A stretch of DNA of 64,000 bases, taken from positions 2,256-66,255 of the forward strand of contig JAFUJK010000012.1 of the NCBI GenBank assembly GCA_017468205.1, given 5' to 3'. This DNA comes from Clostridia bacterium. Lineage in GTDB: Bacteria > Bacillota > Clostridia > Christensenellales > UBA1242. A program made the position numbers and the translations under genes. The notes beneath the pieces are model-generated. The model worked only from the letters and a program-made list of their open reading frames with translations. It did not search any database and was not told the DNA's origin. Positions 12,508-54,675 of this stretch are shown here, piece after piece (the first letter of the stretch is position 1; every line of letters starts with the position of its first letter).

Positions 12508-13230
12508 TTAATCACTAAATTTTTTACGCATTTGTTGTATCACTTTATTTTCTATTCTACTCACTTGCACTTGGCTCACTCCCAACTCTTTTGCGATTTC
12601 GCTTTGAGTTTTATCGCGATAATAACGCATAATTATAATTTTTCTATCACGAGGAGAAAGTGATGCAATTAACGATTTTAAAATAAAATGGTCTAGTTTT
12701 GTATCCTCATCTTCAGGGTCCGCAATTCGCTCTTGAAGTGTAACACTTCCCTCTTCCGTTTGGTCAATAGGAGCCGATAAACTCATTGGATACTTATTGC
12801 TATCCATGGCAAAAACAACTTCCTGAGGTTCCATTCCAAACTTATTTGCAATATCTTCAATATTAGGAGTTGGTTCTTGTGGTGGAATTGACGCAAGATA
12901 TCTATTAATCTCTATCGCCTGAGATTTTATAGCACGGCTTACTTTAATATAACCATCATCACGCAAAAAACGCTTAACTTCACCCGCTATCATAGGAACT
13001 GCGTATGTGCTAAATTTAACATTATAAGAGCAATCAAAATTGTTGATTGCTTTTACAAAACCCACACATCCTAATTGAAATAAATCATCATAATCTACAC
13101 CTTTGTTTCGATAACGTCTAATCACACTTTTTACAAGCGGATAATTTTGATTTATGAGCATATTTTTGGCTTCATTATCGCCCGCTTGCGCCAATTCTAT
13201 CAGCCTAAGTGTTTGCTCATAATCAATCAT
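12508..13230 (-). CDS. sigF: RNA polymerase sporulation sigma factor SigF
   Basis: ATG at 13230 preceded by GGAGGTG. Sigma-70 regions 2-4 are recognisable (DLFQLGCVGFVKAINNFD, TQSEIAKELGVSQVQVSRIE). It is third in a spoIIAA-spoIIAB-sigF arrangement. Confidence 0.88.
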   Translation of the reverse strand: MIDYEQTLRLIELAQAGDNEAKNMLINQNYPLVKSVIRRYRNKGVDYDDLFQLGCVGFVKAINNFDCSYNVKFSTYAVPMIAGEVKRFLRDDGYIKVSRAIKSQAIEINRYLASIPPQEPTPNIEDIANKFGMEPQEVVFAMDSNKYPMSLSAPIDQTEEGSVTLQERIADPEDEDTKLDHFILKSLIASLSPRDRKIIIMRYYRDKTQSEIAKELGVSQVQVSRIENKVIQQMRKKFSD

Positions 13231-13684
13231 TTTCACCTCCAAGCGCTACACACTTTTTATGAGTAAGTGTTTTTCTCATTTCTACAACCACACCTCTATC
13301 TCCATTTTTACGCAAAACAACACTATTCATAAAACTCTCCATAACAGTAAACCCCATTCCTGCACGCTCCTCATCAGGCTTAGTGGTAAAAAAGGGTTCT
13401 CGTGCTTTTTCAAAATCCGAGATGCCAACGCCCGCATCAGAAATTTTAATGTCTACATCTCGGGCACTTGTTAATCCAACCCAAATTGAAATTTTTCCAG
13501 TCTTTTTAGGATAAGCGTGAACAACACAATTAGTAACAGCTTCGCTTACCGCCGTTTTAATGTCAGTTATTTCATCTAATGTCGGATTAAGTTGAACACA
13601 AAAAGCCGCAACAGCACTACGCGCAAAACCTTCATTAATAGAATGAGAATCAAATTCCAAAGTCATTTCATTTATATAATTCAT
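13223..13684 (-). CDS. spoIIAB: anti-sigma F factor (serine kinase) SpoIIAB
   Basis: 153 aa. HATPase_c-type N box (EAVTNCVVHAY) and G boxes (DAGVGI, GMGF). The position between the STAS gene and sigF fits. Confidence 0.88.
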   Translation of the reverse strand: MNYINEMTLEFDSHSINEGFARSAVAAFCVQLNPTLDEITDIKTAVSEAVTNCVVHAYPKKTGKISIWVGLTSARDVDIKISDAGVGISDFEKAREPFFTTKPDEERAGMGFTVMESFMNSVVLRKNGDRGVVVEMRKTLTHKKCVALGGEND

Positions 13685-20798: not shown

Positions 20799-21395
20799 TT
20801 AAGCAGCCGCTGGAGCGTCAGCCAATGTGTAGTTCTCTGGGTCGATTACGAACTTGTAAGTACGTTCGTTTTCTTCTGTACCGTCAAAACTAATTGACAA
20901 TGTCAAAGTTCTAATAGAGTTATCAACACCTTGGTAGAAGAAGTAAGTAGTGTTCTTTGTTGTGTCGTTTCCAGAACCAAAGCCACCGTGCTTAACTTTC
21001 TCGTTTGCAGTACCTTTGTCAATAATACAGTAGAAACCAGTTTGTTCTTCTGCATCCCATGATACTCTTTCAAGAGTGTCAGATGTAAATCTAATCAAAG
21101 CGAAGTGTTTACGGCCATTGTCATCTGCATCAACATATCCCAATGCACGAGCTGTTTCAATATCGTACTCAACTGTACCTTTCAAAGTGTAAACAGCTTC
21201 AAAACCCTCCTCGCTTGATTTTTCCCATGTTGTAGCGGCTACATTGTATTGTTCGCCTTCAATGTTACCACCAAAGTTGATGGTGTACAAACTCTTTGAG
21301 CCACAAGCAGCAAAACTAAGCGCACAGAATGCAATCAACAAAACAGCACACATAGTCATTGCAAATGTCTTTGCTCTACTAGCAGTTTTTTCCAT
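20799..21395 (-). CDS. putative lipoprotein
   Basis: 198 aa. Signal peptide ending in the lipobox LSFAAC-GS. Confidence 0.7.
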   Translation of the reverse strand: MEKTASRAKTFAMTMCAVLLIAFCALSFAACGSKSLYTINFGGNIEGEQYNVAATTWEKSSEEGFEAVYTLKGTVEYDIETARALGYVDADDNGRKHFALIRFTSDTLERVSWDAEEQTGFYCIIDKGTANEKVKHGGFGSGNDTTKNTTYFFYQGVDNSIRTLTLSISFDGTEENERTYKFVIDPENYTLADAPAAA

Positions 21396-36054: not shown

Positions 36055-37383
36055 CTACATTAATAAATTTCCATCATCTGTTTCAATTACTTTCAAAATA
36101 TTAAACTGCAAACCAGTTTTTGCGTCAATATAAATATAATAAGTTGAACCTTCACTAACACACATAAATTCATAGGTCAAAGTTTCGCCTACATAGTCAT
36201 TAGGAACAATTGCCATTTTACACGTACGAACATCCATATCAGTGGTTAAAGATTTTCTCGCTTCCACTTCATTAATTGTAGGGCTTAAATTATTACGTTC
36301 TACGTGGTTATATGCCCAACTGCGAGCCTCCCATCCAACAACCTCACCGCTATCTTGCGACACTTTCACCTTTATCATATCGGGATAAACTATCACATCA
36401 TTCTGTACAAAAGTTAAATTAATATAAACAAAACCATTACTTGCAGTACTCCAAACAGCCTTCATATCCTCAAAACCAAGGTTTTTTGCGAATGTTTCAG
36501 CAATTGTTCGACATTCATCTTCTGTTTTCTGCGCATCTCCTACCTCATATCCCCCATTAAACTGTAACAAAATTCCATCACGTTTAGTTACTTGAGCATA
36601 AGCAGTCTGCTCCCCCTTTTCTAACTCAAAGTTAAAAGTGGCAAATTCTCCATCAGTTTCTCCATTGGCTTTAACCGAAAAGTCCGCAAACCATTCACGC
36701 ACTCTATTAAGTGCTTCCTCTGCATTAATTTCATTTTCAGAAAGCCCTTTAATCTCCTTATCATTTAACGAATCACTAAATGGACCGTCATAAATCAAGG
36801 TCGGATACTCATTAATTTCGTTATTCAATCCACTAAATTGATTGTTGAAATCACTTGTATCCATATTAGGATTTTTAACATTATCCACAATAGAATAATC
36901 TGTTGAAGCCAGAATTGTCAATCTATTTAACTCATATTTAACATTTTGGCTTGAAGTATGCAGTGATGCTATTTGGTCCATATCATCGAGCGAAATTTTC
37001 TCACCAGCAGCCAAATTTTGTTGCAAAATTAAGCAAAAACCGCTTAATTGATTTATAAAAGTTATCGTATCATTCACCGCATTATGCTCAATCGGCAAAG
37101 TCGCGATGTTATCCTGCGCTGCATTCGCCTGCGCAACAACATTTGACAAATATTTTTCTTGAACTTTTGGGACAGTTGATACTTTTAATTTACTCAAATT
37201 AGACTCGATATTATTGATATTATCAGTTAATTCATATAAATTTCGTTGATAGACATATTCCAATTGATTTTTATATTGCCCCATCGCATTAGAAGTCATT
37301 CCCCAATTAATACCTGTAAACGTAATTGCGCCAACAGCAAGCACAGTCCCCAAAACAATCGCTACAATAGTAACTTTTTTCAT
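36055..37383 (-). CDS. ypeB: germination protein YpeB
   Basis: 442 aa. N-terminal TM, then the YpeB-type helical region (YKNQLEYVYQRNLYELTDNINNIE) and C-terminal PepSY-like repeats. It lies directly downstream of sleB. Confidence 0.8.
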   Translation of the reverse strand: MKKVTIVAIVLGTVLAVGAITFTGINWGMTSNAMGQYKNQLEYVYQRNLYELTDNINNIESNLSKLKVSTVPKVQEKYLSNVVAQANAAQDNIATLPIEHNAVNDTITFINQLSGFCLILQQNLAAGEKISLDDMDQIASLHTSSQNVKYELNRLTILASTDYSIVDNVKNPNMDTSDFNNQFSGLNNEINEYPTLIYDGPFSDSLNDKEIKGLSENEINAEEALNRVREWFADFSVKANGETDGEFATFNFELEKGEQTAYAQVTKRDGILLQFNGGYEVGDAQKTEDECRTIAETFAKNLGFEDMKAVWSTASNGFVYINLTFVQNDVIVYPDMIKVKVSQDSGEVVGWEARSWAYNHVERNNLSPTINEVEARKSLTTDMDVRTCKMAIVPNDYVGETLTYEFMCVSEGSTYYIYIDAKTGLQFNILKVIETDDGNLLM

Positions 37384-48997: not shown

Positions 48998-49090
48998 AAA
49001 CGTACCTCACAAAAATCTTTTATATATTCTAGCAAAAATTAAACAAAATCGCAAACATTATACGCAAATTTTTTTAAAAATATTAACAAC

Positions 49091-49124
49091 AAAAAACACT
49101 TTGGTTTTATGCCAAAGTGTCTTT
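49091..49124 (-). terminator. intrinsic terminator after lipoprotein gene (repeat copy T1)
   Basis: ACACTTTGG / CCAAAGTGT 9-bp stem with a T6 run on the minus strand. It is near-identical to 50128-50160. Confidence 0.7.
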
Positions 49125-49147: not shown

Positions 49148-49966
49148 TTAATTAAAACTGTCCATAGTAATGTCCCAAGCGGCTTGGAAACTTGCGGCAA
49201 AGTTATTTGCAGCATCTTCAACTTGAACGAAATCGTCGCCATAGAAGTCAATCAAATCAGCCTTCAATGCAACGTGCCTTGCGCTGGTGTATTCATCGCC
49301 CTCTACATTAACAGCGCGCAAGCCATTTGTTGCGTCATAAGTTAGGAAGTAAGAAGTAAAGTTTACGTCTGTCAAACTATCAGCAGTTTGGCTGGCACAG
49401 ATTGCAACGCAATATTCATAAGAGTTCATTTTTTCATTCTTGAAATCATAGTCAACTTCAAATGCAATATAGTTAACACTATATGTGTTGTATGTAGTTT
49501 CTTCACTCATAACAACACTTTCACCTTTAAGCACGCCATTTTCGTACTTTAATGTCATTTGAATACCAAAATCAGCTGTAGAGCTTCCATTTGAAATAGT
49601 AGCATTACCTTTAATCATTTCACCAGACTCGTAAATTTCAATAGAGTTTAATGAAATTAAACTATTCAAAGTTGCAAGCATCATAGTGTTACCAGTCGCC
49701 ATACCAACACCTGTACTGTCTACTTCGTCCCAAGGCAAAAGTTCGCTTTCTTCTGCATCAACAAGTCCGCCAAGCAACGGAGTAGATACCGCAGGGGTTG
49801 AATATTGCGCTTCAATGGTTGTTTTAACAGCTGTAAGTGCTTCAATATACTCCTCTTTTGTGAGTTTGTTAGAGCCACAACCAACAAAAGAAAGTGCAAC
49901 AATAAGCGTCATAAAAACTGATGCTACAACCGTAAAAATGCTCTTTGATTGTCTTGTATTTTCCAT
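49148..49966 (-). CDS. putative lipoprotein
   Basis: 272 aa. Signal peptide with the lipobox LSFVGC-GS. AAGGAG lies upstream. Confidence 0.7.
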   Translation of the reverse strand: MENTRQSKSIFTVVASVFMTLIVALSFVGCGSNKLTKEEYIEALTAVKTTIEAQYSTPAVSTPLLGGLVDAEESELLPWDEVDSTGVGMATGNTMMLATLNSLISLNSIEIYESGEMIKGNATISNGSSTADFGIQMTLKYENGVLKGESVVMSEETTYNTYSVNYIAFEVDYDFKNEKMNSYEYCVAICASQTADSLTDVNFTSYFLTYDATNGLRAVNVEGDEYTSARHVALKADLIDFYGDDFVQVEDAANNFAASFQAAWDITMDSFN

Positions 49967-50014
49967 TGTTTTTCTCCTTTTTTTAAACTCGAGAAAACAA
50001 GTTTCTCTATGCTA

Positions 50015-50046
50015 ATTATAGCACCCCCCCCCCCTCCAAATGTCAA
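50015..50046 (-). promoter_or_regulatory. promoter with G11 homopolymer in a 20-nt spacer (TTGACA-N20-TGcTATAAT)
   Basis: The minus strand has TTGACA (50046-50041), the spacer tttgga-G11-tgc (50040-50021) and TATAAT (50020-50015), with TG at -15/-14. On the plus strand the run is C x11 at 50024-50034. Confidence 0.6.
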
Positions 50047-50127
50047 GCGATTTGGGGTGTTTTTTTGAAATTTTTTAGTCAATTTTTGAGCATTCAAAAC
50101 TCGATTTCTAGTACATTTTTCCACAAT

Positions 50128-50160
50128 AAAAAACACCTTGGTTTTTGCCAAAGTGTCTTT
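50128..50160 (-). terminator. intrinsic terminator after the 407-aa gene (repeat copy T2)
   Basis: ACACCTTGG / CCAAAGTGT stem (one mismatch) plus a T-run on the minus strand. Confidence 0.7.
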
Positions 50161-51464: not shown

Positions 51465-51867
51465 TGGTGGAAGCGATGGGAATCGAACCCATGTCCAAGC
51501 AGTATTCAAATCCACCCTCTACACGTTTAGTTTAATTGTAGAATTTAACCCAATTAAGAACAACAAACAAATCTCAATCAGGCGATTTTGTCTAAATTAA
51601 CCCCAAGCCGACAAACTATTCTTGGGAGAGGTATGTCGGGGTTCAAGCCCGCCAAAATTCCCGCCATACCAAAGGAATTTAGGCGAACTGTCCTAAATCG
51701 TAGGACGATTAAGCGTAAGCAACTGCACCGAAGTTGGTAGCAGGCATTACGTTAACGTTGTTTGCTTTAGATTCAGCATTTAAATTTAATTTCCGTTTTT
51801 AACGCAGGCGAGCCTGCGACGTGCAAAGTAGAAAGAATATCCACCTGTCGAAACCAGTACGCTCCCC
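51465..51867 (-). ncRNA. ssrA: tmRNA (SsrA)
   Basis: 5' GGGGAGCGTACTGGTTTCGACAGGTGG and 3' GGGTTCGATTCCCATCGCTTCCACCA on the minus strand. It lies directly downstream of smpB. The candidate tag ORF is GCT GAA ... GCT TAC GCT TAA. Confidence 0.9.
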
Positions 51868-51880
51868 TAACCTAGGGAAG

Positions 51881-52327
51881 TTACCTAGCCATTTTAATTT
51901 CTCGTTGAACTTCGCGTTGCAAATCGCGCTTCTTTATAGTATCGCGCTTATCGTGCAATTTCTTACCTTTACAAATGGCGAGTTCAACCTTGACGAGCGA
52001 GTGCTCGAAATACAACTTCAAAGGCACAACCGTCAGTCCTTTCTGTGCTATCGCCTCGCTTAGGCGTGCAATCTCGGACTTGTGAAGAAGTAATTTTCGA
52101 GAACGACGTTCATCGGGAACAAAGTTCTGGGCGTATGGATACGTCTTGATATACATATTGATGATAAACGCTTCGCCGTCGCGCACAGTAATATATGTAT
52201 CATTGATGCTTGCGTGTCCCGACCGTATGGATTTTACTTCGGCTCCGACAAGGCTAAGCCCAGCGGAAAACTTTTCAAGCACAAAATACTCAAAGTGAGC
52301 GCGCTTATTGGTGGCAATTACCTTCAT
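51881..52327 (-). CDS. smpB: SsrA-binding protein SmpB
   Basis: 148 aa. NKRAHFEYFVLEKFSAGLSLVGAEVKSIR is the canonical SmpB N-terminus. Confidence 0.93.
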   Translation of the reverse strand: MKVIATNKRAHFEYFVLEKFSAGLSLVGAEVKSIRSGHASINDTYITVRDGEAFIINMYIKTYPYAQNFVPDERRSRKLLLHKSEIARLSEAIAQKGLTVVPLKLYFEHSLVKVELAICKGKKLHDKRDTIKKRDLQREVQREIKMAR

Positions 52328-52420: not shown

Positions 52421-54538
52421 TTAGTCTTCTAATATTTTAAAGTTAATTTGTCTACGGCGCAAATTAACACTTTCGACTTGAATTCTAACTTTTTGACCTA
52501 ATTGATAGTCGTGTTTTGAACCTGCGAGTTTATATAATTTTTCGATAAAAACGTAATTATCTGTTGGCAAATTCTCCAAAGGACACATACCTTCTACGGT
52601 ATTTGGCAACGCAACAAACACACCAAAATTAGTTGCACCAGTTACAGTACCTTCGTATATTTCGCCTATATGATTTTGCATATAATCTGCCTTTTTAAGG
52701 TCGTCAACCTGACGTTCTGCTGACTCGGCAAGTTTCTCACGTTCACTTGTCAAATCGCTTGCTTCTTCGACAAATTCACGATAATATTCAAGTGCTTTTT
52801 TATCCTTATTTCTGAGGTAGAATTTCTTTATAATTCTATGGATAAGCAAGTCAGGATAGCGTCGAATTGGTGAAGTAAAATGACAATAGTTTACAGCGGC
52901 AATACCAAAGTGTCCCAAGTTTTTTGGTGCATATCTTGCCTTTTGGAGGCTACGTAGCATAACCGAGTTTATAAGCATTTCATAAGGTTGACCCTCAACA
53001 GTTTTAAGCAAGCGTTGCAAGTCTTTTGGGGTAACCTTATCAGGATTGTTCGCGACTTTTAAACCAAATTGGCTGGCAAACTGGAAGAAATCGAACATTT
53101 TTTGCCCATCTGGCTGTTCGTGGACACGGAAAAGGAAAGGCAGTTTCTCCTTATGACAAGCAAGCGCGACAGTTTCGTTTGCTTCAAGCATAAACGACTC
53201 AATCATCATATGCGCTTCGTTGCGCTCAAACAATTTAACTTCAAGAACGTGTCCAGCACTATCCATTTCAAACTTGCATTCAGGCAAATCAAATTCGAGC
53301 GCACCACGACGTTTGCGTTTTGCGGACAAAATGCGGTGCAATTTCTGCATTGCTTTAAAATCTTTGACCATATCGCTATATTTTGCGCATACTTGTGGGT
53401 CGTCATTGAAGATAGCAAAGACATCGTCATAGGTCATTTTTTCACGAGATTTGATAAAGCCTTCACAAATTTCGTAGTCATAGACCTCACCCTGCTCGTC
53501 AATTTCCATTATAACGGAGAGAGTTAAGCGTGTAACTTTTGGGTTAAGTGAACAAATACCATTTGAAAGTTCGCGTGGAAGCATTGGGTATACCAAATCA
53601 GGGAAATACACACTAGTACCACGTTTATAAGCCTCGTTGTCAAGCGGAGAATTTTGTTTTACATATTCGCTAACATCAGCGATATGAACCGAGAGTGTAA
53701 AGTGTCCATCAGGGTGTTCAACAATGCCTACTGCGTCATCAATATCACGAGTGTCAGCGCTGTCAATTGTAACGATATTATCCCCAGTGAAATCACGTCT
53801 GCCACGAGTTGCTTCAACTGGCACAGATTGTGGTAATTTTCTCGCTTCAGCCAGAACATCAGGCTCAAACTCTTCGTAAAGATTATTTTCACGAATAATT
53901 GCAAGCATTTCGATTTTAGGGTCGCCATTAAGCCCGAGAACTTCGGTAAGCACACCCTGCGGGTTCTTGTCGCCAGCGACATATTTTGTAATACGACAAA
54001 CAACCTTGTCCCCCGCTTTCACCTTAAATTTGCCATGATTGCGAATAACAATATCTTTAAAGTAACGAGTATCGTCAGGTTTTACAAAGGCAAGATTAGG
54101 GTTAACAATATCAAGCGTGCCGACAATATTTTTCTCGCTACGTTCAACAACTTTGACTACTTGTCCCTCGCTTCTATCGCCATTTTTGCGCACTTTTACA
54201 AGCACTACGTCGTTGTGCAAAGCGGTTTTTAGCGATACAGGAGGGATAAACACATCGGGAGTTTCGCCACCATCGGTAAATTTACAAAAAGCAAAGCCAC
54301 GAGCATTTCCAATCAACACACCTTTTCTCAATCCAAGCGCTTCTGGGGTCGCCAACTTGTCGTGTCCTTCAATAACCAAATCGCCCATTTCAATTAATTT
54401 GCCGATAAGAGCATAGGAATTGGTATATTCAAGTCCAAGGCCTTCGCTCAAATTGCGCGCAAGTTCAGTGCGCGTGCGAAAATAGAGCTGATGCTCCTTA
54501 ATAAAATCTAGTGCGTTAATGAATAAATCTTCTTGCAT
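52421..54538 (-). CDS. rnr: ribonuclease R
   Basis: Start moved to the ATG at 54538. It has cold-shock/OB domains, the RNB domain (DSADTRDIDDAV) and a C-terminal S1 domain (GEIYEGTVTGATNFGVFVAL). Confidence 0.92.
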   Translation of the reverse strand: MQEDLFINALDFIKEHQLYFRTRTELARNLSEGLGLEYTNSYALIGKLIEMGDLVIEGHDKLATPEALGLRKGVLIGNARGFAFCKFTDGGETPDVFIPPVSLKTALHNDVVLVKVRKNGDRSEGQVVKVVERSEKNIVGTLDIVNPNLAFVKPDDTRYFKDIVIRNHGKFKVKAGDKVVCRITKYVAGDKNPQGVLTEVLGLNGDPKIEMLAIIRENNLYEEFEPDVLAEARKLPQSVPVEATRGRRDFTGDNIVTIDSADTRDIDDAVGIVEHPDGHFTLSVHIADVSEYVKQNSPLDNEAYKRGTSVYFPDLVYPMLPRELSNGICSLNPKVTRLTLSVIMEIDEQGEVYDYEICEGFIKSREKMTYDDVFAIFNDDPQVCAKYSDMVKDFKAMQKLHRILSAKRKRRGALEFDLPECKFEMDSAGHVLEVKLFERNEAHMMIESFMLEANETVALACHKEKLPFLFRVHEQPDGQKMFDFFQFASQFGLKVANNPDKVTPKDLQRLLKTVEGQPYEMLINSVMLRSLQKARYAPKNLGHFGIAAVNYCHFTSPIRRYPDLLIHRIIKKFYLRNKDKKALEYYREFVEEASDLTSEREKLAESAERQVDDLKKADYMQNHIGEIYEGTVTGATNFGVFVALPNTVEGMCPLENLPTDNYVFIEKLYKLAGSKHDYQLGQKVRIQVESVNLRRRQINFKILED

Positions 54539-54675
54539 AATTTTTCCTTTTTTATTAGTTGACGTGGCAATCTCGCCTTTACCCCATGTCAGAAATTCTT
54601 TTGACGAGATTTTCGAGTTATTTATACGTAAAACAAACAAAAATTAAAGAGAGGAACTACCTCTCTTGTGAATGT

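Follow-up and report, generated by a model that had tools for sequence, protein, structure and literature searches.

A poly-G tract within the promoter spacer of a lipoprotein gene in a Clostridia bacterium: a candidate slipped-strand switch and its relatives in public genomes and metagenomes

A run of eleven G residues lies between the -35 and -10 hexamers of the promoter of a predicted lipoprotein gene in a 64,000-nucleotide stretch of DNA from a Clostridia bacterium. The question raised by this locus is whether the length of the tract regulates the gene, or whether the tract has another role or none. The whole stretch that was analysed is termed the window, and positions given are those of the window unless stated otherwise.

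The minus strand at positions 50046–50015 reads TTGACA-tttgga-GGGGGGGGGGG-TGc-TATAAT, where GGGGGGGGGGG is an uninterrupted G11. The -35 hexamer TTGACA (50041–50046) is perfect and is preceded by CGC at 50049–50047. The 20 nt spacer tttggaGGGGGGGGGGGtgc, i.e. tttgga-G11-tgc, is at positions 50021–50040 and includes the presumed slippage tract at 50024–50034, which is a C11 on the plus strand. The -10 is of the extended type, TGcTATAAT, with the TG at 50023–50022 and a perfect TATAAT at 50020–50015. No alternative -35 is present at 16–18 bp from this -10. The earlier note on this DNA had described the same minus-strand sequence, perfect hexamers, extended TG -10 and 20-nt spacer, and direct reading agrees in full. 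The lipoprotein ATG and Shine-Dalgarno sequence that it described are also present (AAAGGAG at 49974–49980 on the minus strand, with GGAG at 49977–49974, 7 nt before the ATG), however the ATG at 49966 is 48 nt downstream of the -10 and not about 40 nt as the note had it.

The window has a G+C content of 36.5%, and apart from the G11 the longest G or C run in the 64 kb scanned is 6 nt. The base counts of the window give an expectation of about 0.002 runs of 11 G or C per 64 kb. The tract, which had been called striking from inspection, is more than a chance occurrence. The pattern TTGACA-N15–21-TATAAT is found at seven sites in the window, where shuffled sequences give 0.21. The six other perfect promoters have spacers of 16, 16, 17, 17, 17 and 18 nt, thus consensus sigma-A promoters are real and canonical in this host and the G11 promoter, at 20 nt, is the outlier.

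An intrinsic terminator of the upstream 407-aa gene (minus strand, 50123–50160; repeat families D3 and D4) insulates the lipoprotein promoter from that gene. A second intrinsic terminator, that of the lipoprotein gene itself (minus strand, 49086–49124), is about 92%–95% identical to the first, and the two near-identical terminators bound a cassette of promoter, gene and terminator. Two further candidates near the tract were rejected. A 75-aa open reading frame that crosses the tract (minus strand, 49924–50151) starts within the terminator, overlaps the start of the lipoprotein gene and is unsupported. On the plus strand a terminator-like hairpin with a T-run overlaps the -35 at 50034–50057, and its dyad is CCCCAAAT-N8-ATTTGGAG. 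It is taken as chance because its folding is no better than that of shuffled sequence (z = -1.5).

The gene downstream of the promoter (minus strand, 49148–49966) encodes a predicted 272 amino acid lipoprotein with a signal peptide and an FVGC lipobox (F-V-G-C30, the cysteine being Cys30), and surface exposure is suggested by the signal peptide together with the lipobox. The protein shows no match in Pfam, and a fold search in the PDB with an AlphaFold model of moderate quality (pLDDT 69.6) gave no match (best E = 0.08). It is encoded by a single-copy gene that has no paralogue in the 64 kb window. A second open reading frame with a lipobox (...SFAAC) is found at 20799–21395 on the minus strand; it encodes 198 aa and has no family match.

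The locus contains genes for RNase R, SmpB, tmRNA, the 407-aa protein, the lipoprotein, a patatin-like lipase, an MBL-fold protein and NrdD. The tmRNA gene (minus strand, 51465–51866), with the tag AESKANNVNVMPATNFGAVAYA, is directly downstream of smpB (51881–52327) and the RNase R gene (52421–54640). The closest relatives, which were found via the patatin protein (78%–85% identity) and carry the NCBI label "Clostridia bacterium", keep this gene order. The slot between the ~410-aa gene and the patatin gene is however empty in L006–L015 and holds a GT8 glycosyltransferase gene in L005 and L016. The closest syntenic relatives display neither a lipoprotein gene nor a G/C run of 7 or longer, so that a comparison of orthologous tracts is not possible there. 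As the slot is empty or otherwise filled in relatives, the promoter-lipoprotein-terminator unit is an accessory cassette and the slot is variable. The minus strand carries genes for sporulation and germination at 12508–13684 and 36055–37383, i.e. spoIIAB (above the equivalog cut-off), a SigF/SigG-family sigma factor gene and a YpeB-like gene. The "spore-forming Firmicute" of the earlier note is plausible on these genes, and the host of the window plausibly belongs to an endospore-former lineage.

The earlier note had proposed a comparison of tract length among strains, and the length does differ. The G11 tract with intact flanks is also found in three other assemblies, ENA ERZ28018778 (L001), Logan SRR12529335 (L002) and ENA ERZ28653727 (L003), which are 99.9%–100% identical to the window and come from different samples and assemblers. 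Contigs of several samples encode the exact lipoprotein. A G12 tract is found in a contig from another study, Logan SRR14289618 (L017), which is 99.1% identical to the window, with 18 mismatches and 3 indels over 2.3 kb. This contig encodes P0122, the second member of the 90% cluster of the lipoprotein. Its promoter has the same hexamers and the same non-G spacer bases as that of the window, and the G11 and G12 tracts thus give spacers of 20 and 21 bp respectively. Taken alone the difference is weak evidence, as this 200-bp intergenic region has two other small indels besides it. Among the five sequences of this locus (four G11 and one G12) there is no allele near a 17-bp spacer. A scan of JGI metagenomes for the exact promoter flanks with a variable gap gave 0 matches. 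A further Logan contig (L004) ends 3 nt from the tract; this end is counted as uninformative because a branch in tract length would be expected to break the contig at another point.

The lipoprotein has few relatives. Neither a k-mer-indexed search of 5.8 billion proteins nor a genome-contig search found any beyond its own cluster, and a full HMMER scan of 1.84 billion representatives found five remote homologues at 24%–32% identity, four of which have a lipobox. A profile search with the family alignment gave no further members. Two of the five homologues have G-tract promoters. The promoter of P0154 (32% identity) is AAAACGC-TTGACA-aaggt-G12-TATAAT with a spacer of 17, and that of P0158 (28% identity, found in two assemblies) is AAAACGC-TTGACA-aaaggc-G9-tTGa-TATAAT with a spacer of 19. 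P0155 has an ordinary promoter, TTGACT-17-TAACAT, with a 17-nt spacer; P0156 is close behind another gene and has no promoter of its own, and the contig encoding P0157 begins 29 nt before the ATG. Among the window gene and the four homologues whose upstream region can be resolved, three of five therefore share a CGC-TTGACA/poly-G/TATAAT promoter, although the proteins are barely alignable. The spacers of the family G-tract promoters are 17, 19, 20 and 21. The design with the tract in the spacer is conserved, at the level of sequence, among remote homologues of the lipoprotein.

The promoter type extends well beyond this family. A scan of GTDB species genomes with the pattern CGCTTGACA-N2–10-G8-N0–8-TATAAT found at least 119 stretches, as against a naive expectation of about 1–2 for 23 fixed bases. 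A metagenome scan with a pattern that omits CGC and has G9 or more found at least 120 stretches, and many of the listed metagenome matches are human-gut contigs of 55%–62% G+C. Over public genomes and metagenomes together, analogous promoters thus number more than 240. Since CGC is present in only 1 of the 122 listed metagenome matches, the CGC-restricted count underestimates the class. The modal run length among the listed GTDB matches is G9 (58/123), and G8, though allowed by the pattern, accounts for 16/123. The earlier note had suggested a search for other poly-G/C tracts near surface-protein genes; such tracts are found in the two remote homologues and in these public promoters, but not elsewhere in the window.

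By the author's tally of NCBI titles among the listed GTDB matches, about 66 are "Clostridia bacterium" MAGs from the gut of rabbit, deer, goat, mouse and human, and 15 are labelled Christensenellaceae, Christensenella or Christensenellales. There are four Lachnospiraceae, three Streptococcus, two Gallimonas and two Pumilibacter isolates, and the remainder have other, scattered labels. Six are Treponema or Spirochaetaceae MAGs (L111, L113, L117, L130, L131 and L137), in agreement with the poly-G promoters that experiments have established in Treponema pallidum. Several genomes have 3–4 of the listed GTDB matches each. Cultured carriers are Pumilibacter intestinalis CLA-AA-M10 (L085), P. muris CLA-AA-M08 (L143), Streptococcus orisratti DSM 15617 (L074) and S. 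sciuri SQ9-PEA (L106). In viral contigs (L266–L277) the G pattern gave 9 matches and the C pattern 3.

The genes downstream of these promoters are enriched in lipoproteins. In the listed GTDB set a lipobox is present in 48 of 101 downstream open reading frames, compared with 42 of the 865 other open reading frames in these loci (odds ratio 17.7, p = 3e-28), and 72 of the 101 have a hydrophobic N-terminus. The listed metagenome set shows 37/106 versus 54/746. Pfam matches of downstream proteins include a collagen-repeat/Flg_new lipoprotein, a BspA LRR protein with a camelysin-type N-terminus, an N-methyl pilin, a subtilase and ABC transporters. The HMM of the window lipoprotein family detects only P0158 among 207 downstream proteins, thus the promoter type is not tied to one protein family and serves many unrelated exported proteins. 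Four paralogous lipoprotein genes in Lapin-032__bin86 (L044, L059, L122 and L126) each have a G-tract promoter of their own. Two adjacent lipoprotein genes in L026 (2319–3195) have their own promoters with G11 and G12, and a tandem lipoprotein pair in L070 (4625–6878) has its own with G10 and G9.

Tract length is labile across the class. When listed matches were clustered by 300 nt of flank, length differed in 12 of 17 homologous promoter clusters. It differed in 10 of 25 listed pairs whose 300-nt flanks are at least 99% identical, and three of the differing pairs, with flanks that are 100% identical, are G9 versus G10. A contig end is found within 150 nt in 12 of the 123 listed matches, versus 2.1 expected (p = 2e-6). 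These are L035, L049, L050, L051, L055, L063, L087, L111, L116, L118, L128 and L133; L055 and L118, from the same MAG, represent the same promoter at two contig ends. An excess of contig breaks is the expected product of length heterogeneity, or of poor read-through, at the tract.

The spacer lengths of the class do not follow the ordinary rule. Ordinary perfect promoters of the GTDB loci have spacers of 16 (4), 17 (31), 18 (6) and 22 (1), i.e. 31 of 42 are at 17 bp. The G-tract promoters of the same listed loci have spacers of 15 (22), 16 (24), 17 (8), 18 (19), 19 (26) and 20 (13), which places 8 of 121 at 17 bp (p = 6e-17). In the listed metagenome set the peaks are at 18 (38) and 19 (32), with 9 of 122 at 17 bp, and in the TGn subclass, which includes the window promoter, 17 bp is found in 0 of 32. 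One possible reading of the depletion is that the majority state is nearly always off-optimum, as in a default-OFF contingency design. Another is that a G9–12 tract alters the geometry of the spacer, in which case the working optimum would not be 17 bp. The depletion also raises a mechanistic question, namely how RNA polymerase recognises a promoter whose spacer contains a rigid G-tract.

These comparisons, i.e. strain polymorphism, remote homologues and class enrichment, support the reading as a phase-variable promoter that was first made from the letters of the window. The probable explanation of the locus, proposed with some confidence, is a slipped-strand contingency promoter: the hexamers would be spaced according to tract length, and the lipoprotein expressed accordingly. 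The promoter would be of the housekeeping (sigma-A) type, with a hypermutable poly-G tract built into the -35/-10 spacer. Slipped-strand mispairing at replication would add or remove G residues, and each gain or loss would change both the distance and the rotational phase between two otherwise perfect hexamers. The altered geometry would in turn change the strength of transcription of the monocistronic lipoprotein gene. The outcome might be ON/OFF or, as some activity may persist through the TGn extended -10, graded. For the two alleles sampled, G11 (20 bp) and G12 (21 bp), weak activity is predicted. We infer that slippage in populations is frequent and reversible and that transcription depends on tract length. 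On the suggestion of the earlier note that loss of 3 G would give an optimal promoter, G8 (17 bp) would be the ON state, but no allele near 17 bp was sampled at this locus and the class as a whole avoids that length.

Several observations count against a switch. Both alleles are 3–4 slips past the canonical 17 bp, and the G11 is common to the four near-identical assemblies. Since three steps are needed, the switch would be slow. The extended -10 could free the promoter largely from its -35. The depletion at 17 bp also weighs here, as it means either that majority states are off-optimum or that a simple 17-bp rule does not apply.

A wider proposal can be made for the class, i.e. a "poly-G phasome" that spans many loci and the whole lineage. 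In uncultured gut Clostridia, sigma-A promoters with G-tracts, in their hundreds, may stochastically vary surface lipoproteins, pilins and adhesin-like proteins, in the role that invertible promoters have in Bacteroides. They would do so under a non-canonical rule in which 17 bp is avoided and the loci are either default-OFF or have an optimum of 18–19 bp. The carriers in this proposal would be Christensenellaceae-like MAGs, Pumilibacter and human-gut taxa of 55%–62% G+C. The proposal is tentative and we place it slightly below an even chance.

The alternative that survives best is that the homopolymer is accidental or decaying. The tract would be mutation-prone without being an evolved switch, and a once-good promoter would have fallen out of register, leaving an accessory gene silenced and drifting. 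The alleles of 20 and 21 bp are indeed far from the optimum with no ON-like allele found, the cassette is strain-specific, its gene being missing in the closest relatives, and there are further indels in the same intergenic region. The codon differences also point this way. Between the lipoprotein genes of the window (49148–49966) and L017 (341–1159) 4 are non-synonymous and 2 are synonymous, while the adjacent patatin gene of the same two strains has 0 non-synonymous and 6 synonymous differences. A 4:2 ratio however fits a variable surface antigen and relaxed constraint equally well. The open reading frame is intact in both strains, the hexamers are still perfect, and the tract-in-spacer design is kept in homologues of low identity. 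Decay also fails to predict the more than 240 other promoters with their modal G9, lipoprotein enrichment and fixed strand orientation. It is regarded as unlikely, although it is the most serious competitor of the slipped-strand reading.

Less probable again is that the G-run is itself a promoter element, which would provide G at -14/-13 for a contact of the extended -10 type, or a special spacer geometry. Such a promoter would be strong and insensitive to length, and the length differences would be tolerated noise. The strand orientation is consistent with this: across L025–L263 every tract embedded in a promoter has G, and never C, on the non-template strand, i.e. that of the promoter. G/C runs of 8 or longer besides the seed matches are few, 25 in the 1.6 Mb fetched, and 8 of these are within promoters with 10–12/12 matches, with G on the promoter strand, whereas the C orientation is represented by 0. 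In the listed GTDB set G occupies -14 in 89 of 121 promoters and the tract abuts the -10 in 45 of 121. The spacers cluster at 15–16 and 18–19 rather than 17, which suggests a non-canonical geometry, and copies of the same locus from different human-gut samples alternate between 18 and 19 and remain within these lengths. On the other hand, the spacers of the class span 13–26, and orthologous copies among the listed matches differ by up to 4–6 nt, which is hard to square with length-insensitive use of a conserved and perfect -35. Length also controls output in the poly-G spacer systems studied by experiment, i.e. porA of N. meningitidis (van der Ende et al. 1995, cited in PMC5084427) and tp0126 and tpr of T. 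pallidum (PMC7864442). An element of this kind is thought a rather improbable account of the tract.

A promoter dependent on a MerR-type activator, in which a DNA-twisting regulator realigns a spacer of 19–20 bp and the G-run is incidental, appears very improbable. Targets of MerR-family regulators characteristically have consensus hexamers 20 bp apart, as has the window promoter. The spacer tttgga-G11-tgc is however without dyad symmetry, no MerR-family gene is adjacent (the neighbours encode the 407-aa protein and the patatin-like lipase), and the homologous spacers are not fixed at one length. An artefact of sequencing or assembly, i.e. poly-G from two-colour chemistry or a mis-called homopolymer length, can be set aside as scarcely credible: homopolymer lengths are error-prone, the L004 contig stops beside the tract and contig breaks near such tracts are commoner than expected, but the G11 is repeated in three assemblies from independent samples and assemblers with unique sequence on both sides, the architecture is also present in isolate genomes (e.g. 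Pumilibacter and Streptococcus orisratti DSM 15617), and an artefact would give long runs at read ends and not 9–12 nt exactly between hexamers. An invertible promoter was likewise rejected, as the sole candidate repeat, I7, is weak (16-nt arms, 81% complementary) and there is no recombinase among the neighbouring genes.

To our knowledge, work on phase variation in gut commensals has been dominated by invertible promoters (Bacteroides, C. difficile), and simple-repeat contingency loci are known mainly from small-genome pathogens. If the G-tract promoters do switch, many of the gut Clostridia, most of them uncultured, would continuously diversify its lipoprotein and adhesin surface by replication slippage. 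This would have a bearing on escape from IgA and phage and on strain persistence. It would also matter for the way in which metagenome assemblies are read, since such sites interrupt contigs. The existence of the two cultured Pumilibacter carriers (P. intestinalis CLA-AA-M10 and P. muris CLA-AA-M08) makes the switch idea directly testable.

Comparable promoters are known in other bacteria. The opc gene of Neisseria meningitidis, which encodes a surface protein, has a poly-C tract in its promoter. In porA of the same species a poly-G tract lies between the -35 and -10, and according to the account of this work in PMC5084427 its length sets the spacing and the expression (van der Ende et al. 1995, J Bacteriol 177:2475). 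The likeness to the window is that of a homopolymeric G/C tract between the -35 and -10 of a surface-protein gene. The differences are that porA and opc belong to a Gram-negative pathogen and have tract lengths that straddle the 17-bp optimum, whereas the window promoter is from an uncultured Clostridium of spore-former type and has spacers of 20–21 bp.

In Treponema pallidum, promoter poly-G tracts precede the surface or outer-membrane protein genes tp0126 and tprE/G/J/L (PMC7864442, citing Giacani 2007, 2015). Their length varies within and among isolates and modulates transcription, and the tp0126 tract lies between the -35 and -10. T. pallidum is however a spirochaete whose genome, at 53% G+C, contains many poly-G tracts, whereas the window has one tract in 36.5% G+C, upstream of a lipoprotein gene of Gram-positive type.

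The vlp genes of Mycoplasma hyorhinis, a member of a Firmicutes-derived lineage, encode surface lipoproteins that are switched by a poly-A tract in the -35/-10 spacer. The lipoprotein paralogues with G-tract promoters of their own in L026, L070 and Lapin-032__bin86 resemble this arrangement. The vlp system differs in its poly-A tracts, clustered multigene family and repetitive coding regions, whereas the window gene is single-copy; a Vlp-type family of clustered paralogues with conserved 5′ regions is absent, the public data giving the gene's own cluster and the five remote homologues.

The promoter-proximal T-tract of Helicobacter pylori sabA changes promoter geometry and gives a multiphasic, graded output; it adjoins the -35 on the upstream side and acts via alignment of an UP-like element (PMC4081817). 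The sabA tract is thus outside the spacer, whereas that of the window is inside, and a graded output like that of sabA is plausible for the window promoter because of its extended -10. G-tract slippage also controls a surface structure in a gut commensal, the pili of Bifidobacterium breve, where the tracts are intragenic (PMC9187656), and G9–G11 tracts are typical of the contingency loci of Campylobacter jejuni (PMC8437040). In B. breve and C. jejuni the intragenic tracts act by translational frameshift, whereas that of the window is proposed to act by promoter spacing.

In the literature searched, whose coverage is incomplete, promoters with poly-G tracts are not described for Clostridia or Christensenellales, which is weak evidence that a large class of G-tract promoters in gut Clostridia is apparently undescribed. 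Computational analysis of the window locus finds an uninterrupted homopolymer of at least 8 nt, a tract placed between the -35 and -10, strain polymorphism with conserved flanks and a predicted surface product, as in systems of the porA, tp0126 and vlp type. As tract length differs between strains and the design recurs at well over a hundred surface-protein genes of related gut bacteria, the window promoter is most likely a mutational on/off or dimmer switch of the kind known from pathogens.
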